Made by a program: the position numbers and the translations under genes. The notes under the pieces are model-generated. The model had not been told where the DNA came from. It searched no databases and saw only the letters and a program-made list of their open reading frames with translations. From Candidatus Heimdallarchaeota archaeon (lineage in GTDB: Archaea; Asgardarchaeota; Heimdallarchaeia; Heimdallarchaeales; Heimdallarchaeaceae), in NCBI GenBank assembly GCA_016839945.1, contig JAEOTE010000125.1, positions 1-32,057 of the forward strand: a DNA stretch of 32,057 nt, read 5' to 3'. How positions within the stretch are numbered: the stretch's first letter is position 1; each line of letters begins with the position of its first letter. Shown here piece by piece: positions 1-26,762 of this stretch.

Positions 1-2
1 AC

Positions 3-161
3 CAAACATCAGTTATGAAACTATTACATGATTTTAAAGAACTGGATGATGAAGTAGTACTGCAACGGATATATGATTTAGTTAATAAAGAGATTATCAA
101 AACAAGTGTAACCGATGATTACACTCAAACATTCTTTAGCTTGGATACAGATTTCTTTTAA
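3..161 (+). CDS. 3' end of a gene truncated by the window edge; C-terminal winged-helix tail paralogous to the two large membrane proteins downstream
   Basis: Frame 3 reads QTSVMKLLHDFKELDDEVVLQRIYDLVNKEIIKTSVTDDYTQTFFSLDTDFF* (TAA at 159-161). This aligns by eye to KTTVMVLLDNINDFDDEVILSNIIELVKKEMII at the end of 3618..7166. Not in the ORF track. Confidence 0.85.
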   Translation, partial: QTSVMKLLHDFKELDDEVVLQRIYDLVNKEIIKTSVTDDYTQTFFSLDTDFF

Positions 162-252
162 TTGCTTTGCTACTTTAAATAAATATAAATAAAAAAACAA
201 AAAACTATAACCATACTAAAGAAAAAGACTATAGACTATTCGGGGCAGTTCA

Positions 253-3200
253 ATGAGATTCCAGATAGGAAAAAACAGAAAATATGTTATTTTATTTCTA
301 ACGATATCATTACAGCTGTTAATTGTTTCATCTTCTTCTAACAATTTTTTATTGGTTCAAGCATCAAAATTTGAAGTTGAAAATCCAACGAAGTATGATT
401 CAAGTTTTTCAAATAATGTTTATCCAAATATATTTTCGAAAGAAGATATAAAGTACAACCCAATCAATAACGTTACTGGAGCAGGTTCAAGTTTTACAGC
501 AAAAGATATTTTGAATGTTTATGATGAACAGAATCTAAATTTGACATATAATGTTGGAAATGAAAATTTTGAAGATATTTATTTCATTAATCCAATCTCT
601 GGGTATACTCCTTATTCCCTACAATATAATTTAACAAGTATAACAGCAAAAACTGATTGGTATCCAGTTGAAAGCAATACTGATGGTACTGAAATTGAAA
701 TTGGATATAATGCAGATAGAATTGCTGCAGCACAGGCATTCGAAGTAAAATGGGACTATGCTTTATTTTTGGGTTCAAAAATCTATCTTAAGTATTTAGG
801 AAATACAGGAGCTCAGAATCTTGAATTAATTATAGTTAAAGCTGATGAAATTTCAGGTTATCCTAATATGAGTTATGAATATACAAATGACACAAATGAT
901 CCTTATAATAATGCTAATCAAATTCCTGAGAGTACAATAGATAACATTGTTTTCTACAATTTCACTGATGTAATTCTTGAAAGAGGTACATATTTTGTAG
1001 TAGCAAATGTTACTAATCCAGTAGCATCTGCTAAAAATTTTGATTGGTTTGGAAATACTCTAGGTGATGATGATGGAGATACTTATTTTAGATCACTTAA
1101 TGGTTCTTGGTCTTTAGAAGTTGCAACTGATTTAACATGCATTCCATTATTACTCCCATCAGATGAGTTTGGAAATCCTTTGGAAATTACAAATCCTTCT
1201 AATATTTATCTCCAAGATAATGGGGGGGATATTCTAAGTATTACTCACTCAATTACTTCAATAGGTAGTCACACTCTTACTAGTAATACTTCAGTGGAAA
1301 TCTCATTCAATAATTCTTATTCATTTAGTTTAGACAGAGCTGTATCTTCTAGTTATCAAGCTTTTAATTCCACTTATGGTGATTTCTCAATTTATTGGAA
1401 TTTAACATGGAGTGTAGAATTTGCTGATCCTTCTCCTTACTCTCTATACAACAGAACATTCTTAGTCTCTGTTCCAAATGACTGGTCATTAATTTCAACT
1501 TGTTATTATAATGAATCAGATATTCTTAGTTCAGTGAAAACTGCTGAAGGATATTTGTGTGGTTTTGGTTTTAATTCTTCAGCAGGAGATTTAAGACTGG
1601 AAACAACAAGCACAAACTACATCCAAAATCTGAATCTCATCAGAGATAGTTTACCCTCACAGTATTATTATTTAGGGTATTGGACAAATGATGGAGAGAC
1701 AGCTTTTGGTCATCCTGGATCTACAATTACAGCTGATCTTACTATAAGTAACGCAGTAACAACTGGAGAAATGAATTTCACAGTATGCAATCCTGATGGC
1801 ATTTTGTTACCTTTGAAAAGCTCTTTACCTGCTAATCTTTCATATGTTGATACAACAGAATATACTCAAAGTGGAATTACTTATTCAAGTCCAGGTATTT
1901 TTACTTCAAGCATAACATTTGATCCCTCAGTGTATGGAACAGAAGTTGTTGGTACTTGGTCAGCTTTTATTTATTGGAATAATGGAACTGAGGTAGGGAT
2001 TTTTTCTAAAGAGATATATGTTCAATGTGCTACTCGTTTCAATATCTCTTGGGAAGAAACTCCAGGTAATAATCAATGGTTATCTGATACTGAAGGATCT
2101 ATTCTACGTAAGAATGGTGATTTGCTAAATTTACGAGCTACTTATTCATCAATAAGTGAGCCTTATTTTGATGAGTATGGTCTTTCTATTCCTAATTCAA
2201 ATATTACATACTCAACAAGCTGGGGATTGTCAGGGAATTTCAGTAGTAATTATCCTAATTATAATCTGACATTTATCGCTTCAGCAACAGCAGGAATGCA
2301 TTCAATTGATGTAAATACGTATGATAGTTTCTGCGAACCTCATTCTCATTCATTAGATATCGAAATATTCAATATATATAGGATTGAACCTCGTGAAACC
2401 GATATTAAAGTAAATTCTACTGATAATTTAGTTATAGCATTTAGTATGATAAATGAAACAGATCCAGCTGAAGGAGTTATCTTCCCAGATTCGGTTGAGC
2501 TTTTAATTAATAGTAATCCTGTTTCTAGTGGTTTTTATACGCAAGATACTGAAGGTGATTATACTACACTTTCAATCAGGATAGGGACTTATGGTATAAC
2601 AGAAGGAACTGCGAATGTTACAATTTTAGTTACAAAAAGTAATTTTAGATCTGGATATTCTATTCAACCTGTTTCCTTTGATTTTGAGGTTCAAGTCTTC
2701 CCCGGTTCTACACCTTTTGAATTTCCATTTTATTACTACATAATTATTGGAGCTGGTATTTTAGTTATTTTCTTATTAACTATATCATTAATCTCTGTCT
2801 CTAGATCAAGAAAGAAAATTCCAACAACATTTGTTGATACAACAGATAAAGCAAAAATTGTTGGATTACTTGACAGTGTTTTATCAATGAAGAAGATTCT
2901 CTTTATCCATTCAGAAACAAGTCTCCCTGTTTATGATCTAGATATTGGCGAAAAAACAGAAGTTGATACAACATTGATTTCAGGTTTTCTCAGTGTTGTT
3001 GGACAAATGGGAAAAACAATAGGAGGTAGTGATACAGGTGATATTAGAAAGCTCGAATATAGAAATTTTGTAGTAAATGGTGTAAGCTCGGAAAATTATA
3101 CTGTTTTTCTCTTCACAACATCTGATATAATAAAAGAGTTTACTGCTAAACTTTTTGATTTAGTCATGTGGTTTAATTACACTTTTCCTATAAATCAGGA

Positions 3201-3513
3201 AGCTTGGGATGGTAACAAAGAAACATATGTAAAGAATAAAAGATTAATCGAAGATAAAATAGCTGACTCTTTATATTTATGGATTTATTTCCCACTTGAG
3301 GTAAATCCAAGAAAAGAAAGTGAAGTAAAGAAATTAAAAGAAGTAAATCCAAAAATAGTTGCATTCATAAAGAAAAAGAAACAAATAACTCTTAGCACTT
3401 TAATTACTAAATTCCAAGAACAATCTCTAGAAGCAGTTTTGACTTCGTTTTTCACAATGGTAAATAGTGGATATCTAAGAAGAAGACAATTTCAATCATT
3501 TACAAATACGTAA
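253..3513 (+). CDS. Large type I membrane surface glycoprotein (receptor-like): signal peptide, beta-rich ectodomain, one TM, cytoplasmic longin-like domain plus winged helix
   Basis: Hydrophobic N-terminal signal; S/T/N-rich ectodomain with many N-x-S/T sequons; TM YYYIIIGAGILVIFLLTISLISV followed by basic SRSRKK; cytoplasmic ILFIHSETSLPVY...DTTLISGFLSVV...IRKLEYRNFVV pattern typical of Asgard longin-like domains. Confidence 0.8.
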   Translation: MRFQIGKNRKYVILFLTISLQLLIVSSSSNNFLLVQASKFEVENPTKYDSSFSNNVYPNIFSKEDIKYNPINNVTGAGSSFTAKDILNVYDEQNLNLTYNVGNENFEDIYFINPISGYTPYSLQYNLTSITAKTDWYPVESNTDGTEIEIGYNADRIAAAQAFEVKWDYALFLGSKIYLKYLGNTGAQNLELIIVKADEISGYPNMSYEYTNDTNDPYNNANQIPESTIDNIVFYNFTDVILERGTYFVVANVTNPVASAKNFDWFGNTLGDDDGDTYFRSLNGSWSLEVATDLTCIPLLLPSDEFGNPLEITNPSNIYLQDNGGDILSITHSITSIGSHTLTSNTSVEISFNNSYSFSLDRAVSSSYQAFNSTYGDFSIYWNLTWSVEFADPSPYSLYNRTFLVSVPNDWSLISTCYYNESDILSSVKTAEGYLCGFGFNSSAGDLRLETTSTNYIQNLNLIRDSLPSQYYYLGYWTNDGETAFGHPGSTITADLTISNAVTTGEMNFTVCNPDGILLPLKSSLPANLSYVDTTEYTQSGITYSSPGIFTSSITFDPSVYGTEVVGTWSAFIYWNNGTEVGIFSKEIYVQCATRFNISWEETPGNNQWLSDTEGSILRKNGDLLNLRATYSSISEPYFDEYGLSIPNSNITYSTSWGLSGNFSSNYPNYNLTFIASATAGMHSIDVNTYDSFCEPHSHSLDIEIFNIYRIEPRETDIKVNSTDNLVIAFSMINETDPAEGVIFPDSVELLINSNPVSSGFYTQDTEGDYTTLSIRIGTYGITEGTANVTILVTKSNFRSGYSIQPVSFDFEVQVFPGSTPFEFPFYYYIIIGAGILVIFLLTISLISVSRSRKKIPTTFVDTTDKAKIVGLLDSVLSMKKILFIHSETSLPVYDLDIGEKTEVDTTLISGFLSVVGQMGKTIGGSDTGDIRKLEYRNFVVNGVSSENYTVFLFTTSDIIKEFTAKLFDLVMWFNYTFPINQEAWDGNKETYVKNKRLIEDKIADSLYLWIYFPLEVNPRKESEVKKLKEVNPKIVAFIKKKKQITLSTLITKFQEQSLEAVLTSFFTMVNSGYLRRRQFQSFTNT

Positions 3514-3617
3514 TCTGTTTTTGAACCCTTTCTTACCTTAAAACGATTGCTCAATACAATAAAAATTTAAATAATAATTCTTAAGGTTAAGAAAAGAAAG
3601 GTACTGGGGTTTGTCAT

Positions 3618-6600
3618 TTGGATTCAAATTTATCAAGTGCTAAGAGAATAATTAACCGAGTATTCACTGTGTATTTATTGGTTTTAATCACTTTATCTAC
3701 AATCAGCTATTCTACTTTGGGTAGTCAAACTAACAATTATTTTAACATTACAAGTAATCCAGATTCATTTACGAATATATTTCAGAATGATTTTAACGAT
3801 AAGATAAAATTCCAGGGTAGTGGTTATGATTATACTCCAATAGCTAGCATCATTTTTAATGGTAGCACTTTTTCAACTAGTGAAAATATGGATGTAGAAC
3901 ATTCTATTATTACATCTACAAAGTATGTGAATCCAACAACTCGTTCAGCTAGTTTAGATATTCCTGCTCCAACTGGATACTCGGATGTTTCATTGGATTA
4001 TAATATAACGAACATTGTAACTATAGAAGACTATTATAGAATAGAAGAAGTGGGGACAGCTCCTTATGAATTGAATAAAGATCAAGATATTGCTTTAGCA
4101 CAAGAATTTGAAGTGTTCTGGGATTATGCGATCTTCACTGGGGCTAATATGACTTTCGACAATAATCGCGTTGGTGATTTTGGGACCTATCAAATGGATT
4201 TGTTCATTGTTAATTCTACTGGTTCAGCTCCAAATGTGACTGATGTATCAAATGTTTTGAGTTATTGCCTTTCTTCCCCGTTTAACGAAAGTAACTATAG
4301 CATTCTTGATGATACAATGAAATTCTATGATTTTGAGGATATAATTCTTGTAAAAGGCAAATATTTTGTTGTAGCAAATCTCACTGTAATTGATTCAGGA
4401 AATGATAGTGAATTTATCTGGGGAGGAAAAACAGGAACTAAAGATTCTGAAACCTATTTCAGAGACAATGGAGGTTCATGGAGTGCTGGTGTGAATGTTG
4501 ATTTATCATTATTTGCAAAATTACTTCCATCAGATGAATCAGGTTTTCCTTTAACAATTACAGATCCAACTACTATAGAACTTGAAGATGATGGTAGCCC
4601 AGTATCTTCATTAACAGGTTCAATTACAAGTGGTTCTCACACATTAACAAGTAATACTTCCGTACAAATAAGTTATGAGAACAATTATGTTTTTCAAAGG
4701 TTATATGTAAGCAATTCAGAGATAATGGCATCCAACTCTAGTTATCTAGATTACACAAATCAATGGAATGTTAGTTTTGATATAATTGAAGAAGTCGATA
4801 CAATATACACAAACATTAACAGGACTCTTCTAATTCCAACTCCTGATGATTGGGAATCAATAACTTTTTCACTTTATTGGAATAGCTCTTTGCTTTATTC
4901 AGAAAGAGTTAATGATGGGTATGAATTTTACCTTAATGATTCCATTTATGGTGGAAGTTTTGTTCTTAGAACAGAAAGTCCTAATTATATTCAAAATCCT
5001 ACTTTTTCAGATGATGTGGAAGTAACAGAAAATTATGTTTTAGGAACTTGGACTCCTCATCCAACAGGAGATAATGCTACTGGAATACCCGGTTCAACTA
5101 TTTTTACGGAAGCAGGAGTAAAGAATATTTCTACAAGCGGTGGAACATTTAATTTCACCTTATTCAATAGTAATGGAGAAATTATTCAACAAAAAAATTA
5201 TACAGAATTACTTACAATAGATCTAATCTATAATGATGTCTCTAATTATTCGGGTATTGGTTATATTGATGGAAGTGTTTACAAACATAATATAACTATT
5301 GATCCTTCAGTATATGGAACTGATGTAGAAGGTTATTGGACAGCTGTTGTATTCTGGCAAAATGGAACTGAAGTAGGAATGTTTTCGAAAAGAATAGCAG
5401 TTGAAAAACCTACCTTAGCAGAATTTGAATGGGAAGAAACTTTAGGCCTGAATGACTGGACTAATGATACATTTGTTGAACTTAAAAGAATAAACGGTCA
5501 TGGTATAGATGCTAATATTAAATACTATAACACAAGTGATCCATTTTTCACAGGCGTTGGTTCTGAAATTCCAAGCGCAATAGTGTATTATAATGCCACT
5601 TGGGGAGATTCTGGATTATTCAATTTTGGAGCTTCTGAATACAATAAAGATATTATGACTAATGCATTGATTGGAACGTATAATATTAGTTTAACTGCAT
5701 CTGGCCCATTTCTAGAAACACATACAATTGAGTTCTCAATAAAAATAATCCATCAATTTGATATTAATCCAGAAAGAAATAATTATTATGTTAATTATAC
5801 AAATTCTCTCAATGTTAGGTTTGGCTTAAGAGATATTTCTTATGGAAATGAACTAATCACTCCTGATACACTAGATCTAGTTCTTAATGGGAATCCATTA
5901 ACACTATCAAATTATTCCTATGGTTATACTGACAATCTCATTGATATTTTACTAAACACTAACAGTTTAGGACTCGATATAGGAGATCACGAACTGGAAA
6001 TAACGGTTACAAAAAACGATTTTGTTGCTGATTATGGTGTAATTTCAACAAGTACGAGTACCACTATTACAGTAACAGAAATTCCAACTATGATTGAAGT
6101 TGTAGATATCGAAACTGAATTAGACATCAATACTCAATCATCTCTTTCCTTCAAAATTATTGATACCAATCATTCTGCTGATATCTCTGGTGCATCATTT
6201 GATGTAATTTTTGATCTCCCTGAAGTTGAGCTAATAGAAAAGCACGAAACAAATGGAATTTATACTATAACTTTCAGAGTTAATGAACCAACAAAAGCAA
6301 CGCTAAACATTTACCTAAATATAACAAAATCAGGATATGAAACAAAATTAAATTATCGAATACCAGAAGCAATAACGATAGATATTCCTGGACCTGGAAT
6401 ACCTCTAGGAGTTCTAGTAGCGTTAATAGCAGTAGCTGTCGTAATAGGTGGAGGAGCTGGTACTTTCTTCTTTTTAAGAGCAAGAAGAAGAACAAGACAA
6501 AGACTGTTAATTGAAAAGAAAGAAAAAGCAAGAAATCTTTTCCAAAGTGCGTTTATGATTAGGAAAATACTTGTTGTACATCATGAGACAAGTCTTCCAG

Positions 6601-7166
6601 TTTATGAAATGAGTATGGAAGAAAATATCGGTTTAGATTCCTCAATGATTACTGGAGTATTGCAAGCAATTTCCTCAATAGGAATGGAAATGATTGGAGC
6701 TCCAACAGGAGTTAAGAAAATAGAATATTATGGTTTTGTAGTTACAAGTGCTTATAGTGGTGCTTACACAAGCTATGTGTTTTCAGAAACTGAATTAGAT
6801 CCTGAAATTGTAAAAGGTGTATCAAATCTAGCAAAATGGTTTGACGTTATATTTGGTTATGATTCAGAGCAGTGGGATGGTTCAATGGATCTATTCAATG
6901 AGTATAAAGATACCATAAATGAAAAGGTGTTTCAAGAGCTATATCTTTGGTTAGTTTATCCAATTGAACTAGCACCTGACACAATGAGAAAATATGAAAG
7001 TTTCTCTCCAATAAACAAGATGATTGTTGACTTCATTAATAGTAAGGAGAAAACCACAGTTATGGTACTGTTGGACAATATAAATGATTTTGATGATGAA
7101 GTAATTCTTAGTAATATAATTGAATTAGTAAAGAAAGAGATGATAATTACTCACACAAATGATTAA
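3618..7166 (+). CDS. Paralogous large type I membrane glycoprotein with cytoplasmic longin-like domain plus winged helix
   Basis: Collinear with 253..3513: AQEFEVFWDYAIF vs AQAFEVKWDYALF, DPSVYGTDVEGYW...WQNGTEVG vs DPSVYGTEVVGTW...WNNGTEVG, HHETSLPVY vs HSETSLPVY, LYLWLVYP vs LYLWIYFP. TM GIPLGVLVALIAVAVVIGGGAGTFFFL followed by RARRR. TTG start. Confidence 0.8.
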   Translation: MDSNLSSAKRIINRVFTVYLLVLITLSTISYSTLGSQTNNYFNITSNPDSFTNIFQNDFNDKIKFQGSGYDYTPIASIIFNGSTFSTSENMDVEHSIITSTKYVNPTTRSASLDIPAPTGYSDVSLDYNITNIVTIEDYYRIEEVGTAPYELNKDQDIALAQEFEVFWDYAIFTGANMTFDNNRVGDFGTYQMDLFIVNSTGSAPNVTDVSNVLSYCLSSPFNESNYSILDDTMKFYDFEDIILVKGKYFVVANLTVIDSGNDSEFIWGGKTGTKDSETYFRDNGGSWSAGVNVDLSLFAKLLPSDESGFPLTITDPTTIELEDDGSPVSSLTGSITSGSHTLTSNTSVQISYENNYVFQRLYVSNSEIMASNSSYLDYTNQWNVSFDIIEEVDTIYTNINRTLLIPTPDDWESITFSLYWNSSLLYSERVNDGYEFYLNDSIYGGSFVLRTESPNYIQNPTFSDDVEVTENYVLGTWTPHPTGDNATGIPGSTIFTEAGVKNISTSGGTFNFTLFNSNGEIIQQKNYTELLTIDLIYNDVSNYSGIGYIDGSVYKHNITIDPSVYGTDVEGYWTAVVFWQNGTEVGMFSKRIAVEKPTLAEFEWEETLGLNDWTNDTFVELKRINGHGIDANIKYYNTSDPFFTGVGSEIPSAIVYYNATWGDSGLFNFGASEYNKDIMTNALIGTYNISLTASGPFLETHTIEFSIKIIHQFDINPERNNYYVNYTNSLNVRFGLRDISYGNELITPDTLDLVLNGNPLTLSNYSYGYTDNLIDILLNTNSLGLDIGDHELEITVTKNDFVADYGVISTSTSTTITVTEIPTMIEVVDIETELDINTQSSLSFKIIDTNHSADISGASFDVIFDLPEVELIEKHETNGIYTITFRVNEPTKATLNIYLNITKSGYETKLNYRIPEAITIDIPGPGIPLGVLVALIAVAVVIGGGAGTFFFLRARRRTRQRLLIEKKEKARNLFQSAFMIRKILVVHHETSLPVYEMSMEENIGLDSSMITGVLQAISSIGMEMIGAPTGVKKIEYYGFVVTSAYSGAYTSYVFSETELDPEIVKGVSNLAKWFDVIFGYDSEQWDGSMDLFNEYKDTINEKVFQELYLWLVYPIELAPDTMRKYESFSPINKMIVDFINSKEKTTVMVLLDNINDFDDEVILSNIIELVKKEMIITHTND

Positions 7167-7255: not shown

Positions 7256-7594
7256 ATGAAAAAATTGTTATTTGTTATTTGGACTGATAATAAAGGAATT
7301 TTTACACATATCATGATGAATGTTTTGGATTTAAATGAAAAAGGATATGAAGTTGGTATTGTCTTTGAAAGCGAAGGATGCAAACTAGTGCTTCATTATG
7401 ATGAGAATGAAAACGATAAATTTGAAAAAATAAAGAAACTAAACTTAGTAGCGTCCGTTTGCAAAGTTTGTGCAAAAGGAATGGGAGCTCTTGAGTCAGC
7501 TGAAAAACAAAATCTTCCAATACATGATGATTTGTTTGGTCATACTCCTCTCGAAAAATGGATTGCAAATGGTTACGAATTAATTTCAGTTTAA
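7256..7594 (+). CDS. DsrE-family small protein (sulfur relay/redox-like)
   Basis: 112 aa with V.IVFESEG, CKVCAKGMG and C-terminal GH...NGYELI pattern of DsrE-like proteins; GGTGA ribosome-binding motif just upstream. Confidence 0.7.
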   Translation: MKKLLFVIWTDNKGIFTHIMMNVLDLNEKGYEVGIVFESEGCKLVLHYDENENDKFEKIKKLNLVASVCKVCAKGMGALESAEKQNLPIHDDLFGHTPLEKWIANGYELISV

Positions 7595-10274: not shown

Positions 10275-11399
10275 TTGAGAATAATATCAAAAGGTGTTGT
10301 GATTTTGAACACTAAAAATGATGAAGAGTACATAATTGAGCAGTTCACTATTGAGAAAGATGAATTTGAAGAGTACTCGAAATTAATCACTCAAGCATTC
10401 CTAAGTGATGAAAATGCAATACAAGAAGGTGCAACTGTAGCATTTTCAGAGGACACTTTCAATATGGTGTTTGGTGCTCCTTCCATTTACAATAATTTAT
10501 TTATCAGAGCGATTCATAAATCATCAGGACAGATGGTTGGTTTCTTAGGAGCTATTCCTCGAAATCTTTCAATTTTAGATAGTATTTACAAATTCGCTAT
10601 CCTTGCATGGCTCTGTGTTCATTCTGATCATCAGAGAAAAGGTTTAGCAAAGAGGATGGGTAAGAAAGCATTTGAGATAAGTCTTAATACTGATTATGAT
10701 GGAGGATTTTCTTTTCATGAACCTAAACAGCATGGAATAGATGTTTCAACATCTGTATCCAGAGAACTGAAAATACCTCTTCAGACAATAGCAACCCTGA
10801 CTAAATTCGTCATTAAAGCGTTTGATGTAGATAAAGTTTCTACTGTAGTTAAACTAAGGTGGTATGAGAAACTAGTATTCAGATTTTTTGAGAAAGTAAA
10901 AACTGTTGATTCTAAGCAAATAAGAAATCATCTAGAGAAAGATATACCAGCTATGTTTGAGATAATTCAAGAGCAGGTAAAACGACATCAAGTATCTATT
11001 GTACCTGATTTAGAGGATTTCAAATGGATGCTAAAGAATCCCAACGTGAATTGTGTTGTTCATGAAGATAACAAAGGCAAAGTAAAAGGCTTTATGCTAG
11101 CTTGGGAATTCATTCTTGCAGGTATGGGCAACCAAGTCCCATATGGCTGGTTAGATATGGTCCACATACACAGATTGAATACTGAAGAAGCTAGCAACTT
11201 AGCGAATTATTTGTGTCAAACATCAAAGAAACGAGGATGGTTAGGATTGCAAACACCATACATCCCTTATTTTGATTTTAAACCATTGAAAAAAGCAAAA
11301 TTCTTCTCCTTCAGTTATAAAATAAATATTGACATTTTCAACTTGAAGAATGTACCTATACCTGAAGAAGTTGAATCTATCTATTTTGATTGGAGATGA
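10275..11399 (+). CDS. Double-GNAT acyltransferase resembling glycylpeptide N-myristoyltransferase (NMT)
   Basis: GNAT acyl-CoA-binding motif LCVHSDHQRKGLA; second GNAT-like half; segments match recalled NMT motifs (VGFLGAIP, KDIP, GKVKGF). The true start may be a few codons downstream. Confidence 0.7.
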   Translation: MRIISKGVVILNTKNDEEYIIEQFTIEKDEFEEYSKLITQAFLSDENAIQEGATVAFSEDTFNMVFGAPSIYNNLFIRAIHKSSGQMVGFLGAIPRNLSILDSIYKFAILAWLCVHSDHQRKGLAKRMGKKAFEISLNTDYDGGFSFHEPKQHGIDVSTSVSRELKIPLQTIATLTKFVIKAFDVDKVSTVVKLRWYEKLVFRFFEKVKTVDSKQIRNHLEKDIPAMFEIIQEQVKRHQVSIVPDLEDFKWMLKNPNVNCVVHEDNKGKVKGFMLAWEFILAGMGNQVPYGWLDMVHIHRLNTEEASNLANYLCQTSKKRGWLGLQTPYIPYFDFKPLKKAKFFSFSYKINIDIFNLKNVPIPEEVESIYFDWR

Positions 11400-17780: not shown

Positions 17781-18344
17781 ATGTCCATATATGGAGCAGT
17801 GAAAATTGTTCTTCTAGGCGATTTTGCTACAGGTAAGACTACTCTAAAGCGAAATTTTATGGGTCTTCATTTAGATGAAGTGTATATGAGTACATTAGGA
17901 GTTGACTTAGCAACACACAAACATCTTGATGAGGATATGGAGCTAACTTTTCAAATTTGGGATCTTGGAGGACAAAAAGATTTCAGAGAAATGCGAAAAA
18001 AGCATTATGCTGGGTCAGAAGGTGGATTATTAGTTTTTGATAAGAGTCGTCCAGAAACTTTTGCTCACTTAAAAGAATGGTTGGATGAGGTAAGTACTCC
18101 TCTAAAAGAGAAAATTCCTATAATAGTTCTAGGTAATAAGAACGATCTTCTTGATGCTGATAACAATCAAAGATTTGATTTAGAAGCAGAACAATTTGTA
18201 AATGAATATAAAAATAGCTTTGAAAATATCGAATTGGTAAATTATTATTCTACTTGTGCATTAACAGGATTGAATGTTCAAAGAGCTTTTAGTGAATTAG
18301 GTAGATTAATTATCAGAAAGAAAAGCGATGAACTAAAGATATAA
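17781..18344 (+). CDS. Rab-like small GTPase (Ras superfamily)
   Basis: G1 GDFATGKTT, G2 YMSTLGVD, G3 WDLGGQ, G4 NKND, G5 TCAL; no C-terminal cysteine motif. Confidence 0.95.
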   Translation: MSIYGAVKIVLLGDFATGKTTLKRNFMGLHLDEVYMSTLGVDLATHKHLDEDMELTFQIWDLGGQKDFREMRKKHYAGSEGGLLVFDKSRPETFAHLKEWLDEVSTPLKEKIPIIVLGNKNDLLDADNNQRFDLEAEQFVNEYKNSFENIELVNYYSTCALTGLNVQRAFSELGRLIIRKKSDELKI

Positions 18345-18393
18345 AGAAAGGAAAGAATTAAAATCTGTATTCTCTTTGAAGTTTTAAAAAAGA

Positions 18394-19308
18394 TTGGGAA
18401 ATACTATGTCTAACGGAATTGATTTTGGTGGCATTTTTACAATGCTAATACCAATCCTAGTTTTTATTGCTCTATATTTAGGTTTTTATGTATGGGGTAA
18501 ATTTGCTAATAGAAAAAAGAAAGAAGGTTATTTTGACGATGTTCTAACCTCTTTAGATCCATTTATACTCAACTATTCAAGAAAAGATCCTAATGATAGG
18601 CAAGTAGAAATTAGAACTCAACTGAATGAAGAATTTTTAGTTACAAGTGCATCAACTTGGTTGATTCTATTACCTAGAACAAGTTTTCCAACAATGCTTG
18701 TTGATGGATTATTTTTTAGAAATAAAGATTCCGTTGGAATTGCTGCTAACTTTGCAGAAAAACCTAGAGTCCTCTTTGAGGTAATCCCATATCGATTAAA
18801 ATCTGCAATCAGGAAAGACTTTGATTACCTTGTAGAAATCGATGATATTGCTACACCAAATGTAGAGGTTAACGAATCTTTCCTTATCAAATCTAATAAA
18901 CCAAGAGTACTAAATCAATTAGTTAGAAGTAAAATGTTCACAAAAAATTTAGAGAATTACACAAAAGAATTACAATGGATATCTGTTAGAACAGACGAAC
19001 CAAATTTCGAGATGAAGTTTAGCATATCAGACAAACCTGCAGATCTTCTAGCATTAATGAAAATGACAATGACCATTTTGAAATTTTTTGGTCAAGTTAC
19101 TGAAAAAACTAAAGACCAACCAATACCTGTTGTATTAAAGAAAGAAACTAAGAAACTATCAGAAAAGGAAAAACAAAAACAGGAAAAAGAAAAAGAGAAA
19201 TATCTCAAAGAAAGAGAAAAACGTAGAGAGAAAGCTAGAAAAGAGGAAGAAAGAAGAGCTAAGAAAAGAGCAAAAGAGGAAGAAAGAGCTAAAAGAAAAG
19301 GTAGTTAA
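18394..19308 (+). CDS. Single-pass membrane protein, CCDC47/DUF1682 (PAT complex subunit)-like, with a charged coiled-coil tail
   Basis: N-terminal TM ending in WGKFANRK, a globular cytosolic domain, and a long K/E/R-rich C-terminal helix; collinear by eye with recalled CCDC47 motifs. Start is TTG 18394 or ATG 18406. Confidence 0.6.
   Translation: MGNTMSNGIDFGGIFTMLIPILVFIALYLGFYVWGKFANRKKKEGYFDDVLTSLDPFILNYSRKDPNDRQVEIRTQLNEEFLVTSASTWLILLPRTSFPTMLVDGLFFRNKDSVGIAANFAEKPRVLFEVIPYRLKSAIRKDFDYLVEIDDIATPNVEVNESFLIKSNKPRVLNQLVRSKMFTKNLENYTKELQWISVRTDEPNFEMKFSISDKPADLLALMKMTMTILKFFGQVTEKTKDQPIPVVLKKETKKLSEKEKQKQEKEKEKYLKEREKRREKARKEEERRAKKRAKEEERAKRKGS
19239..19300 (+). repeat. Short intragenic duplication (33-bp period) encoding KEEERRAK / KEEERAK
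   Basis: aaaagaggaagaaaga occurs at 19239 and 19272 within the charged tail. Confidence 0.55.
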
Positions 19309-22722: not shown

Positions 22723-23724
22723 ATGCCTTACTCTATGAATTCCAATGATGTGAAAGGAAAAACCTTGGATGTTCAACTGTACATTTCTCAATGCGCCTCT
22801 TTGGCACACAGTCTCTTGTATATGACTCAAAAACCAGGTGGGGCATCATTTTCTAAAGAATTTGAAGACACAAAATCTGAGCATTTTCTTGCTGGGGGAA
22901 GTAGCTTATTCTCTCCTATATTCGGTTTGGCAAAAAGAGGGATGCTAGTAGCTGAGAATCATCTGTGGTATGAGGATGCTGAAATTGGTTTCTTCATTAT
23001 GAAGGGATTAGAAAAAGCCAAAACTTGGTACACACCATCAGGAAATACAATCCTTGGGACCATAATAATGTTTACTCCAATAACACTTGCTGTTGCATAC
23101 AACTATGCCAATGAAGGAATGAAAACTAATATCAAACTCAATCTTGATAATGTTGCAAATATAAGCGAACAATTTCTCAAATATTCAACCACTGAAGATT
23201 GTATTTACCTTACAAAAGCGTTGAATAAATTCGTATCTGATAGGATTCTTCCTTCTGATAAAGAAGATGATGATTTTAATTCTTTTATTCAAATACATCA
23301 GCATGAAAGAACTAATTTGTTTGAGTACTTAAAATTCTATGAAAATAGAGATCTAGTTTTCTATGATTTGTCTCATAAGTATCATATCACATTAAAACAT
23401 GGATTTCCAACATTCACAAGAGTTTTTGAAGAAAATCAAAATTTCAAAAATGCAATAACACAGACATATATTACACTTCTATCTGAAAGAAAAGATACTC
23501 ACTTAGCAAAAAGATTTGGTAATGAAATAGCAACTGAAGTGAAAAAGAAAGCTAAAGATGTTATTAAGGCTGGTGGAATCTTTACTGAAGAAGGAAAAGA
23601 TTTAATCCTAGATTTAGACAGATACTTACGAACAACAAAGAAGAGGATTATAAATCCAGGCTCAATAGCTGATATTACTGCTACTACTGTTTTTCTAGCA
23701 CTGCTTCAGGGATATCGTCCTTAA
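22723..23724 (+). CDS. citG: Triphosphoribosyl-dephospho-CoA synthase (CitG/MdcB) family protein, archaeal type
   Basis: KPGG, GNT.LG.I..F.P, DTHLAKRFG and NPGSIADITA motifs. Confidence 0.85.
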   Translation: MPYSMNSNDVKGKTLDVQLYISQCASLAHSLLYMTQKPGGASFSKEFEDTKSEHFLAGGSSLFSPIFGLAKRGMLVAENHLWYEDAEIGFFIMKGLEKAKTWYTPSGNTILGTIIMFTPITLAVAYNYANEGMKTNIKLNLDNVANISEQFLKYSTTEDCIYLTKALNKFVSDRILPSDKEDDDFNSFIQIHQHERTNLFEYLKFYENRDLVFYDLSHKYHITLKHGFPTFTRVFEENQNFKNAITQTYITLLSERKDTHLAKRFGNEIATEVKKKAKDVIKAGGIFTEEGKDLILDLDRYLRTTKKRIINPGSIADITATTVFLALLQGYRP

Positions 23725-24772
23725 CTATAACTTCTTGTTCAAACATCTTCTTGGTGGTTTCTAGTAATTTTGTAGCTGATACTGGCTTTTCATATTCTAG
23801 AATAATTAGTCTATTTAATAGTTTTATTAGAAGTGTTGAATCCTGATCTGTAGAAATGATTTGAACATGAACTGGAGAGTTAAATAAATATTGAAATCCT
23901 TTTTCTGCAGCTTTAAAGAGATCATGCAATGCTTTATGCTTATCAGAAATTTTTTCATCAGTTAAGACAGATACCAAACTCCTTCCATAGATATCTATTC
24001 TATCTGGTTTGAAAGTTTCTAAAAATGTTTTTTCTATCTGTTTGTGTGGTTTTGTCTTAAATTGTCTATATTTTTTAACAACAAGTTCTTCGATTTTAGA
24101 TTCCATTATAATTACAGCAAATGGGAGTACTATTGTTTGTACTACGTTTCCCCCATGAGTTAGTAAATAGCAATTTCCTTTATTGCATTCATTAATTTTG
24201 GATGAGATCTTACGTAGACTCTTGCTTAATACTTGATAAATTGAGAAACTGTCTATATTGTAGTTAGGTGCATTTGCTCTTACAACCAAAGGTTGGTTTT
24301 CGACAGAAAACAAACACCATGCTGTGAGTTTTTTCCCTTCAGCTGATTCAATTAAAGTGTTAGCGATTTCTGTTCCACATTGAAGCAGTATCTCTTTGCA
24401 TTCATCATGGAATTTCTGAAAAACACTTACATTTCCTGCAAAATTCTCAACTTCTTCCTTATAATTCTCTGTGAAATAATCAGAAATACATGCACTTACA
24501 TATTCTGCATATTCGTTGGGCATTTCATCCGATACTTGAAGAATGAAAATAAGTGATTCCTTAGATTTGAGTAGATACTGACTTTCTTCCAATAAAACCC
24601 TTGAAAGTTTTTCTTTCTCTGTTTCTTCAACAAATCTTAGAATAGCCGTAATAAGACCAGAAACTAAAACCTCATCTCCCCTAGAATACTCTTTATAGTC
24701 AAAAACGGGTAATCCATGTTCAGTTATTATGAGTATTCTTTTAATTAGCAAGTAGTCAACTCCATATATCAA
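23684..24772 (-). CDS. Soluble longin-like domain protein with two further roadblock/longin-like repeats
   Basis: N-terminal ILIITEHGLPVF...DEVLVSGLITAILRF...F.GNV..F..F is the Asgard longin pattern; the two following ~110-aa segments show alpha-beta-beta-alpha-beta-beta-beta patterning. Confidence 0.7.
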   Translation of the reverse strand: MIYGVDYLLIKRILIITEHGLPVFDYKEYSRGDEVLVSGLITAILRFVEETEKEKLSRVLLEESQYLLKSKESLIFILQVSDEMPNEYAEYVSACISDYFTENYKEEVENFAGNVSVFQKFHDECKEILLQCGTEIANTLIESAEGKKLTAWCLFSVENQPLVVRANAPNYNIDSFSIYQVLSKSLRKISSKINECNKGNCYLLTHGGNVVQTIVLPFAVIIMESKIEELVVKKYRQFKTKPHKQIEKTFLETFKPDRIDIYGRSLVSVLTDEKISDKHKALHDLFKAAEKGFQYLFNSPVHVQIISTDQDSTLLIKLLNRLIILEYEKPVSATKLLETTKKMFEQEVIVKDDIPEAVLEKQ

Positions 24773-25637
24773 ATATATTTAACGTTTGTAATATCTCTTC
24801 TTTCTTTGGAATATCTCCTAAAACTTTCTGCTTGGAAACTATTGTATTAATTAAAGACACTAATTTGGTCTTAGATTTAAGCTGAACCACTTGTTGGAAA
24901 AACATGAAATTATAATGGTATAAGTGTAATAAATAATTATCCAAACAAGCATGTTGCAATACAATGAAGAAATTTGTGTCTCCAAACTTAGTTTTTTTAG
25001 GATTTTTTGGAAATAAATAATCTTCTTTTTTGGAAGATAAGAAAATCAGACTATTAAGAAAGTCTTTATTCTGAGGAGAAAACACTTCTGGAGAACTGAA
25101 TATCACAAACCTACCTCTTCTTTTATAAGCTGCAATAACAATTGGTTTATCATCGATAAGAGCAAGAGGGATGTATTTCTTTATTCCTGATTCTTTCATG
25201 AATTTTTTATTGCTGTTATAGTCTATCACATGTGCTTTTGTTACCATTAATTTAGTTCCAACAAGTCTTGTTTCTTCTGCAATCTTTGGAAGTCCATAAA
25301 CGAATTTTGATTGAAAGGATATCCCTAACTCTTCACTCATCTCTCCGAAAAATCTCCCTAACTCTTCCCATTTTTTTGGTGAAGGAAGTGTAAGAATCAG
25401 GCATCCACCAATATCTATGTAAGATGTTAATTCGATAAAAAGCTCTTGATTTAATTTTTTCTTAGGCAATCCTATAAACAGAACATGTGATTTCTCTAGT
25501 GTTTTTCTATCTAGTCCGCCACTGACTTTTTTAATAACATTAAACTTTATTTGTGCAGTTTCAGAATCTATTGAATCTATAATCTCTTTTGCTTTAATTT
25601 GTTCATTTAGGGTGGTATCAATAGAACAAACTTTCAT
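24756..25637 (-). CDS. GIFT (GldG/IFT52)/class-I-glutamine-amidotransferase-like fold protein, no signal peptide
   Basis: LEKSHVLFIGLPKKKL....IELTSYIDIGGCLIL...LGISF and GRFVIFSSPEVF...N..FL patterns. Confidence 0.6.
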   Translation of the reverse strand: MKVCSIDTTLNEQIKAKEIIDSIDSETAQIKFNVIKKVSGGLDRKTLEKSHVLFIGLPKKKLNQELFIELTSYIDIGGCLILTLPSPKKWEELGRFFGEMSEELGISFQSKFVYGLPKIAEETRLVGTKLMVTKAHVIDYNSNKKFMKESGIKKYIPLALIDDKPIVIAAYKRRGRFVIFSSPEVFSPQNKDFLNSLIFLSSKKEDYLFPKNPKKTKFGDTNFFIVLQHACLDNYLLHLYHYNFMFFQQVVQLKSKTKLVSLINTIVSKQKVLGDIPKKEEILQTLNIFDIWS

Positions 25638-25700
25638 CTAAAATAGAATTGGATGAGTTAATATAAACTTGTTGCGATTGAGGAAGAAGTTTGATTTACT

Positions 25701-26762
25701 TCAATCTTGTTTTTTGGCTTTTATTATCTTCCTTAAATCTCTTCTCAGCTTTCTCGCTGCATTGCTTTCAGGAGCAAAACGTAGAGATGTTGTTACTTCT
25801 TCATATGCATCTTGAAATTCTTCTTTCACCTTTAAACTTACAGCTCTCAAAAGGTGTGCTTTTGCAGATGTATGAGGTACATTTAGCTTCTCCTCTTCCA
25901 CAATAGCTAATACTCTTCCTGTATATTGTAAAACTTTCTCATGCTTATTTTCTTGAGCATATAGGACTGATATTTTGGATAAAATACCTATATTTCCATC
26001 ATCATTTTCTATATAGTGTTCAAGTAATTCTATGCTTTTTCCTCTTAAATCGGAAATATTGTAATAATCAGCTGCTTTAGTTAATAAAAGGGGATTTTTA
26101 ATTTCGGAGAAATGCATTACTCTATAATAAAAAAACAAATACAGTCCTGCACCAACAATAACTGCAAGAAATTGACATATGATGAAGAATATATCTTCTG
26201 ACAAGAATGCTGATGAAAATGGAAGATAGAGTAAACCTGCACATATCAAACCTGTTACACTAATCCATACCCAGAAACGTGTTCCAAAGAGAAGTATGAA
26301 CCTTTTCTGACGTATTGTTTTTTCATCTTCCCCCTCAATCTCTGTTATCACTTGAAGACTGTCTGTGACGGTTACATTTCCTGCGAATTCTATCAATGAA
26401 AAGACAAATAGTAGAATGTAAGTGTATATAATTGCTACATTAGTATAACGATCATCAGGACTGATATATCGTGTTAAAACTAATAAATTGTTAATAATAA
26501 GAGCGATTAAAGTATAATTTCTTAATATCTTAATGTGCACTAAGAATATTGAACGAGTATGATGTATTTGTTTTGGTAAAGGACGTCGACGAAATCTTGC
26601 TAATCCCCACCCTACTAGAACACTTACTGAAGCTGGAAAAGAAACAAAAGACATTGAAAGATCAACAAAAGAAAGCAAGAATACAATTGATCCCAAAATT
26701 ATCATGCCTAAATCTTCATTTGATAAAGCCATTTCTATTTCGTCTTCAAACATATTAATCAC
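25701..26762 (-). CDS. Multi-pass membrane protein with C-terminal TPR repeats
   Basis: About six hydrophobic segments, then TPR-like helices (AHLLRAVSL...FQDAYEEVTTSLRFAPESNAA). Confidence 0.75.
   Translation of the reverse strand: MINMFEDEIEMALSNEDLGMIILGSIVFLLSFVDLSMSFVSFPASVSVLVGWGLARFRRRPLPKQIHHTRSIFLVHIKILRNYTLIALIINNLLVLTRYISPDDRYTNVAIIYTYILLFVFSLIEFAGNVTVTDSLQVITEIEGEDEKTIRQKRFILLFGTRFWVWISVTGLICAGLLYLPFSSAFLSEDIFFIICQFLAVIVGAGLYLFFYYRVMHFSEIKNPLLLTKAADYYNISDLRGKSIELLEHYIENDDGNIGILSKISVLYAQENKHEKVLQYTGRVLAIVEEEKLNVPHTSAKAHLLRAVSLKVKEEFQDAYEEVTTSLRFAPESNAARKLRRDLRKIIKAKKQD

Follow-up and report, generated by a model that had tools for sequence, protein, structure and literature searches.

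A tandem array of putative surface receptors with longin-like and winged-helix cytoplasmic tails in a Heimdallarchaeal genome

The receptor array

The window analysed here is a contig of 32,057 nucleotides (JAEOTE010000125.1, assembly GCA_016839945.1) from a Candidatus Heimdallarchaeota archaeon of the family Heimdallarchaeaceae. It opens with the end of a small gene, S2, and two complete genes in the same direction, T-A and T-B, which encode large putative surface receptors with an ectodomain, a single transmembrane (TM) helix and a cytoplasmic tail containing a longin-like domain and a winged helix (Table 1). Both receptors start with a basic n-region followed by a hydrophobic, signal-like stretch, and contain exactly one more strongly hydrophobic helix, behind which a cluster of Arg and Lys residues leads into a tail of ~220 amino acids (aa). 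Thus, judged by hydropathy and flanking sequence, T-A and T-B have the signal-like segment, the one TM helix and the basic residues on the cytoplasmic side that characterize type I single-pass proteins. The two are paralogues, with 35% identity over 812 columns in the ectodomain (E 1e-116) and 31% over 205 columns in the tail (E 2e-34). The public gene call for T-B starts 17 codons after TTG 3618 and gives a protein of 1165 aa. A first-pass annotation, made from the nucleotide sequence, had described two full genes with a signal peptide, a big ectodomain, one TM helix, a longin-like domain and a winged-helix end, and hydropathy, the alignment of the paralogues and the model of the T-B tail all agree with that description.

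The ectodomains are acidic (net charge -61 in T-A and -81 in T-B) and scarce in Cys, with six residues in T-A and one in T-B. They are also enriched in NxS/T sequons when compared with composition-preserving shuffles (n=2000 per ectodomain). T-A contains 25 sequons against 15.3+-3.3 in the shuffles, 8 of the 2000 reaching 25, and T-B contains 31 against 15.9+-3.3, a number that none of its 2000 shuffles reaches; the tails contain two and none, respectively. Moreover, the genome has one STT3/AglB gene (E 2.7e-50). A fair reading of the sequence is that T-A and T-B are probably N-glycosylated type I surface proteins. Pfam searches with both whole proteins gave no longin family at E <= 0.01. Their sole match, Cleaved_Adhesin in T-A (P0001), was below threshold, fell within the cytoplasmic tail and was judged spurious.

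Table 1. Features of the receptor array and of the gene behind it (window positions).
Feature	Position	Strand	Description
S2, soluble tail-only paralogue, last 52 codons	3..161	+	Gene start on contig C84 (~C84:5522/5567); no TM helix, no ectodomain
Receptor paralogue T-A	253..3513	+	1086 aa; signal-like aa 10-30, ectodomain, TM aa 822-853, tail from ~aa 860
T-A transmembrane helix	2716..2811	+	Hydropathy 2.76; basic cluster SRSRKK on C-terminal side
T-A longin-like domain	2884..3285	+	Placed by alignment to the modelled T-B tail; tail hidden Markov model (HMM) E 1.4e-78
T-A C-terminal winged-helix region	3319..3510	+	By alignment, fold inferred from the T-B model; boundaries approximate
Receptor paralogue T-B	3618..7166	+	1182 aa from TTG 3618; signal-like aa 11-34
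T-B lectin-like jelly-roll beta-sandwich, resembling carbohydrate-binding modules	4014..4547	+	N-terminal end of the ectodomain, aa ~133-310; predicted structure
T-B transmembrane helix	6369..6482	+	aa 918-955, by hydropathy; followed by RARRRTRQR
T-B longin-fold domain	6555..6953	+	Tail residues 16-148; beta-beta-alpha-beta-beta-beta-alpha-alpha; a juxtamembrane helix (tail residues 2-16) lies before it
Invariant loop motif H-x-E-T-S-L-P-V-[FY]	6579..6605	+	Between longin strands 1 and 2, tail residues 24-32
T-B acidic winged helix	6987..7163	+	C-terminus, tail residues 160-218
DsrE-like gene	7256..7594	+	112 aa; Pfam DsrE E 7.2e-5; starts 90 nucleotides behind T-B

Extension of the array beyond the contig

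The first-pass annotation had suggested extending the contig leftwards in order to count the paralogues, and an overlap with another contig of the same assembly, C84 (6186 bases), allows this. C84 terminates in the very 127 bases that open the window, and this 127-mer has no other copy in the genome. The open reading frame (ORF) of S2 stays in frame across the junction and yields a product of ~215-230 aa; its part in the window shares 47% identity with the last 38 residues of T-B (E 3e-8). A further soluble paralogue, S1 (C84:4695-5384), and a third full-length receptor of 1193 aa (C84:1000-4581) lie upstream. This gives an array of five genes, ordered TM receptor, soluble S1, soluble S2, T-A and T-B. 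The gene ending at position 161 had been taken for a receptor, and the join shows it to encode a soluble, tail-only protein; the earlier count of at least three receptors is right by virtue of the receptor on C84 and not of this gene.

Public sequencing data were also inspected. Logan contigs from three DNA runs of one marine-sediment study, for which no RNA run was listed, were aligned to window positions 1-3000. They are short and of low depth, cover 10-13 of 30 bins and show no joints and no loose ends. Those of two runs extend 558 and 309 bases to the left of window base 1, which agrees with the join to C84 without identifying C84 as the left flank. In two of the three runs, they differ from the window at eight positions and by one inserted base at 128-161, just past the 127-base overlap, and strain heterogeneity at this place probably caused the assembly break.

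The genome contains seven tail-bearing genes at E <= 0.01 (eight matches, two of them being both ends of one gene). Family members are also found outside the array. A 362-aa frame on another contig (C24:4190-5275, + strand) is a short form in which the TM helix and the tail follow a small ectodomain, and an 838-aa receptor (C70:5202-7715, - strand) has a divergent tail with the motif I-H-K-E-S-G and an ectodomain that has a W-x-N-G-T-E-V-G motif in common with the array genes.

Predicted fold of the cytoplasmic tail

The T-B tail was modelled with AlphaFold2 from a 35-row alignment, with a mean predicted local distance difference test score (pLDDT) of 85.3 and a predicted template-modelling score (pTM) of 0.82. 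The secondary structure assigned to the model by DSSP (E17-24, E30-35, H44-62, E70-73, E76-83, E86-92, H98-121 and H127-143) follows the longin topology, and most of the modelled domain can be superposed on solved longin structures. Foldseek gave 11 matches in the PDB at E <= 1e-3, all of them longin or roadblock proteins (TRAPP, LAMTOR, Fuzzy, MglB, Mon1-Ccz1, dynein LC7 and sigma/zeta adaptins), and in a structure scan of 48,161 chains that was independent of Foldseek, ranks 1-47 were occupied exclusively by longin/roadblock proteins. The roadblock matches end at tail residue ~120, and the next two helices, which reach residue 148, are more in keeping with the longin topology. Tails with a longin fold had been predicted by the first-pass annotation, and the model and both structure searches bear this out, together with the C-terminal winged helix. 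Sequence-based searches found little: PDB searches with the tail and with the tail profile gave nothing below E 0.3, and the ESM Atlas returned unnamed Asgard clusters alone.

The T-B model's C-terminal part (tail residues 152-218) is a small alpha/beta domain with pLDDT > 90, whose elements follow the order alpha1-beta1-alpha2-alpha3-beta2(-beta3) of the winged-helix fold. An hhalign comparison of the C-terminal 69 residues with the PCI-type winged helices of distant relatives was in register at a probability of 17%, and has been superseded by the structural match. The domain is acidic across the family, with a median net charge of -3 in helix 3 (range -6 to 0) and of -5 in the whole C-terminal domain; going by these charges, the basic recognition helix and wing of DNA-binding regulators are absent from the tail winged helix.

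The most conserved feature of the tail is the loop between longin strands 1 and 2. Columns H24, E26, T27, S28 and P30 are invariant in 35/35 aligned tails, against a mean column identity of 41% overall, and the motif is relaxed to H-x-x-T-[SG]-L-P in clade T-C. Other invariant or near-invariant positions are found in the central helix (L51, Q52, A53, I57, G58 and E60), at K69 and K70, at W110 and F111, and at W122, D123 and G124. In the longins of the GTPase-activating protein (GAP) type, namely FLCN, NPRL2, SMCR8 and C9orf72, a G-P motif ends the loop before strand 2, beside the catalytic arginine (accessible text of PMC12290439). The tails resemble these proteins and their Heimdallarchaeial look-alikes, as that text describes them, in having a conserved proline-ended motif just before strand 2, and from this matching location the strand 1-2 loop is likely the functional site of the tail. 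However, the G-P motif itself is not present in the tails, where the equivalent place reads S-L-P, or G-L-P in clade T-C, within a motif [ST]-[SG]-L-P. Likewise, none of the columns that are invariant or >=90% conserved in the 35 aligned tails holds an Arg, K69 K70 being the single conserved basic pair; a conserved arginine finger is thus missing, and the WDG motif of the tail is located after helix 2 and not beside the loop. Because they have S/G-L-P instead of G-P and no conserved arginine, the tails fall outside the GAP-type longin class on these criteria.

Predicted fold of the ectodomain

Structural information on the ectodomains comes from that of T-B, ~30% of which was modelled. The jelly roll predicted at its N-terminal end resembles in fold the lectin-like domain of Clostridioides difficile Cwp84, the receptor-binding jelly rolls of phage baseplates and tail tips, and carbohydrate-binding modules, at 4-15% sequence identity and with no Pfam match. 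Lectin_like/Big clusters came up at 0.84 in an ESM Atlas search with the ectodomain and were taken as a lead only. Pfam searches on 35 long homologues left the ectodomains without annotation, except for FG-GAP_3 in one protein (P0085) and Big_7 in another (P0103). The ectodomain could bind a glycan or another surface ligand, as the fold suggests.

Conservation in the genus and across Asgard genomes

The tail profile matches all 18 other sampled genomes of the genus, and the six same-genus loci compared all have one or two soluble and two or three TM paralogues in tandem; one relative (L021) has the identical order soluble-soluble-TM-TM. Conservation across Asgard genomes, which the first-pass annotation had put forward as a check on the array, thus holds at this level. 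Maximum-likelihood analysis of 28 tails recovered four paralogue clades (T-A 100/99, T-C 100/100, S1 100/99 and S2 100/100), each with members from 4-6 genomes, and T-A has orthologues in four other genomes; the T-B type forms an unresolved grade. Since the clades hold members from several genomes, the duplications are older than the species, and all of these types have been retained. S2 diverges consistently, with the loop Q-H-E-x-C-[LI]-P and an acidic, proline-containing stretch in place of the central helix. The existence of distinct, conserved orthologous groups of tandem paralogues would fit hetero-oligomers.

An exhaustive HMMER scan of 1.84 billion protein representatives found the tail in 63 clusters (50% identity) at E <= 1e-3. 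These proteins span 58-2900 aa and mostly carry the tail at the C-terminal end or close to it; in the majority of the long ones, a TM helix lies just upstream of the tail. Soluble homologues of ~225 aa make up 39 clusters and full-length homologues 21, all labelled hypothetical, and their named sources are metagenome-assembled genomes of Heimdallarchaeota or Heimdallarchaeaceae. Minimal forms, consisting of a TM helix and the tail with no ectodomain, also occur (e.g., P0017 and P0070). Within the phylum, the profile matches 197 of 301 sampled genomes at E <= 1e-5. All 28 sampled genomes of Heimdallarchaeaceae are among them, at E 1e-55 to 1e-110, and matches elsewhere are weaker (E 1e-6 to 1e-19).

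Twenty distant loci were picked among the best-scoring ones, from eight other families. A TM helix directly precedes the tail in 24 of their 28 tail-bearing ORFs, in 16 of the 20 loci, and tandem pairs of ~750-aa receptors are common. The exceptions without a TM helix are cytoplasmic proteins of two kinds: in one, the longin-like domain comes with Zn-ribbons and with PCI-, UFL1- and DDRGK-type winged helices in arrays, and in the other with an FG-GAP propeller. Relatives of the former kind (P0097-P0101 and L058:7624-9795, - strand) carry the domain (tail HMM E 1e-15 to 1e-20) within proteins with N-terminal Zn-ribbons and with arrayed winged helices of the PCI, UFL1, DDRGK and FeoC types. In the latter (L050:5027-8098, - strand, and L061:6523-8676, + strand), it is joined to a cytoplasmic FG-GAP propeller similar to those of BBS2 and BBS7, and the L050 protein has DDRGK- and PCI-type winged helices between the propeller and the longin-like domain. 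The neighbours FMN reductase, sulfatase, TauE and peptidase U32 are common to one family alone. In five loci of one other family, a ~195-aa protein with no Pfam match (L049:7178-7759, + strand, and five similar ORFs) adjoins the genes of 750-aa receptors, its gene being convergent with the receptor gene where orientation was examined.

Possible function of the array

Longin domains, roadblock domains and small GTPases are all numerous in Asgard archaea, and we know of no target that has been assigned to these longin and roadblock domains. The reading favoured here, in which we place about as much belief as doubt, is that the array encodes a membrane-tethered adaptor platform. It builds on the domain architecture and its folds, on the conserved array, and on the way in which TM helix and tail go together throughout the phylum. 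The ectodomain would bind a glycan or another surface ligand, which could belong to a partner cell, to the cell's own envelope or to a polymer. The longin domain would act as a dimeric platform, as longin and roadblock domains do elsewhere, and the tail of a receptor would pair with a second tail or with soluble S1 or S2. Dimeric platforms are the rule for such domains, including the solved Asgard ones (accessible text of PMC10933270; PDB 8yqg and 9jue). The paired tails would then offer a cytosolic partner the invariant HxETSLP loop along with the conserved central helix, and the acidic winged helix would serve as a protein-binding rather than a DNA-binding module. In this way, the array would connect the outside contacts of the cell with an assembly in the cytosol, for which a small GTPase is the leading candidate partner, solely by analogy with TRAPP, Mon1-Ccz1, Ragulator and MglB.

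Several points weigh against a membrane-tethered platform. Binding of a ligand is drawn from the fold of the modelled third or so of one ectodomain, the type I topology and N-glycosylation come from sequence, and the pairing of a tail with another tail or with a soluble paralogue would follow from the genes being paralogous and co-located and from the way such folds usually behave. In addition, the top 25 Pfam families to which the 35 tails gave matches at E <= 1 include no longin family, the matches being scattered and weak (four members with TnsA_C, best E 0.0045), and the window's own tail had no Pfam match at E <= 1, longin and winged-helix families included. Finally, conserved non-paralogous neighbours were absent from the 20 distant loci beyond family-level synteny.

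The first-pass annotation had gone further and proposed that the receptors are coupled to a small GTPase, noting one in the same window, the Ras-family protein encoded at 17781..18344 (+ strand; Pfam E 7e-32). The tails, alone or as hetero-oligomers, would be guanine nucleotide exchange factors (GEFs) or GAPs that switch a Rab-, Arf- or Rag-like GTPase upon outside contact. The longin folds that match the tail include well-known GTPase platforms, yet the non-GTPase longins Sec22b (10.7), AP sigma/mu (9.9) and SRX (8.5) score equally well against it, and the longin fold alone is thus no proof of GTPase regulation. Genomic association does not help this proposal. The GTPase gene lies 10.6 kb from the array, beyond ten unrelated genes that are mostly on the opposite strand (DsrE-like, GDPD, EamA, GNAT, DinB, amino-acid permease, zf-AN1, Usp, adenylosuccinate synthetase and methyltransferase). 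The genome has 32 Ras-family matches in 3.0 Mb, and from this density the chance of finding one within 10.6 kb of the 13-kb array is estimated at ~0.3. A GTPase gene is found near the array in two same-genus loci, alongside the same housekeeping genes, and its recurrence is therefore ordinary synteny, confined to a genus in which synteny is generally conserved. Among the distant loci, 3/20 have a GTPase within ~8 kb, no more than the base rate predicts. In the Lokiarchaeon of the structural survey, operons generally do not combine GTPase genes with their possible regulators (accessible text of PMC10933270). Given the lack of a G-P motif and of an invariant or near-invariant arginine as well, the proposed coupling did not find support, and direct regulation of a GTPase by the tails seems unlikely.

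Equally unlikely, in our judgement, is a purely structural role, in which the receptors would form the surface coat or the adhesion fibres of a cell that lacks an ordered S-layer, and would pass no signal, the tail just anchoring, sorting or clustering them, for instance as a tether to the cytoskeleton or to ESCRT-like machinery. Such a coat would leave unexplained the soluble tail-only paralogues, kept as two separate clades with high support, and the invariance of the tail loop in all 35 tails as opposed to the diverging ectodomains and the mean column identity of 41% overall. The winged helix could also make the receptors membrane-tethered transcription regulators that bind DNA at the membrane or after proteolytic release, with the soluble paralogues as free regulators; the acidity of this domain speaks for a protein-binding module instead, and we regard DNA binding as very improbable. 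A more ambitious version of the adaptor platform would be a phylum-wide receptor class in which, on contact with a ligand or a cell, a tail together with S1 and S2 forms a membrane-tethered heteromeric complex of longin domains and winged helices that recruits or switches a Ras-, Arf- or Rag-like GTPase. This is speculative, and we would put it slightly below direct GTPase regulation. If true, it would represent a prokaryotic route of outside-in signalling and a plausible forerunner of the membrane-localised longin/roadblock platforms Ragulator, TRAPP and Mon1-Ccz1.

Comparison with known longin and roadblock systems

The Rab-GEF platforms built on longin domains (TRAPP Bet5/Trs23-synbindin, Mon1-Ccz1 and Fuzzy-Inturned/CPLANE) share with the tail 8-13% sequence identity and no Pfam match. 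They differ from it in that the tail domain is fused behind the TM helix of a protein with a large ectodomain and followed by a winged helix, and in that no TRAPPC3-like or other complex partner is encoded near the array. Compared with the Roadblock/LC7 platforms (MglB, LAMTOR/Ragulator and the Asgard Roadblock structures PDB 9jue, 7yh1 and 7f8m), the receptor tail has two further helices and is tethered by its own integral TM helix, whereas theirs is a lipidated partner. The longin SNAREs Sec22b, Ykt6 and VAMP7 are tail-anchored and have an N-terminal longin domain and a SNARE motif; the receptors are topologically opposite, with no SNARE motif and with a large ectodomain. Asgard longins are described as soluble fusions to GTPase, roadblock or TRAPPC3 domains (accessible text of PMC10933270, Tran et al. 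2024; Lokiarchaeal Roadblock-Longin PDB 8yqg). A receptor-fused longin with a winged helix is not among the architectures given in the accessible text of that paper, in whose main text "transmembrane" occurs 0 times. Moreover, literature searches outside subscription journals and supplements, with the accessible texts of PMC10933270, PMC12290439 and PMC9834061, yielded no TM-anchored longin from Asgard or other archaea. The folds themselves are known, and what appears new is the fusion of a longin to a receptor, the added winged helix and the array with soluble paralogues.

The family places one class of Asgard longin domains in the cell, behind a large surface protein with a predicted lectin-like domain, and probably indicates the kind of stimulus too. 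Its profile occurs in two thirds of the sampled genomes of the phylum and in every sampled genome of its own family, with dedicated soluble paralogues in its own genus. The tails are small and confidently modelled and have an invariant loop, which makes pull-downs and GEF/GAP assays feasible against the ~32 GTPases. Even if no GTPase were involved, the receptors would add a new kind of protein to the archaeal cell surface, one that bears on the contacts between cells invoked by eukaryogenesis models.

Other genes in the window

A DsrE/DsrF-like gene lies directly behind the array in five of the six same-genus loci, as it does in the window (Table 1). It may be co-transcribed with the array and is a conserved neighbour with no evident functional link to it.

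The first-pass annotation had also pointed to a soluble longin protein at position 23684. The 362-aa protein encoded there (23684..24772, - strand) does weakly resemble the receptor tail at the profile level (hhalign P 5e-4), with the common start I-K-I-L-I..E.G-L-P-V-F, but its match to Fuz_longin_1, the first longin of Fuz/MON1/HPS1, is below threshold (E 0.0026), and a PDB sequence search gave no match. Upstream of it, within window positions 23684-26762 (- strand), lie two ORFs with no Pfam match, of 293 and 353 aa, which overlap or adjoin, and the three genes are possibly an operon of longin-type proteins. A 304-aa protein is encoded 50 nucleotides behind the Ras-family GTPase (window 17781-19308, + strand) and has a weak CCDC47/PAT-complex match below the cut-off (E 1.3e-3); both genes are found together again at one same-genus locus (L023). 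Finally, the best Pfam match of the GNAT acetyltransferase at 10275-11399 (+ strand) is the N-terminal domain of N-myristoyltransferase (E 1.8e-9), which is of interest given the many Arf/Ras-like GTPases.

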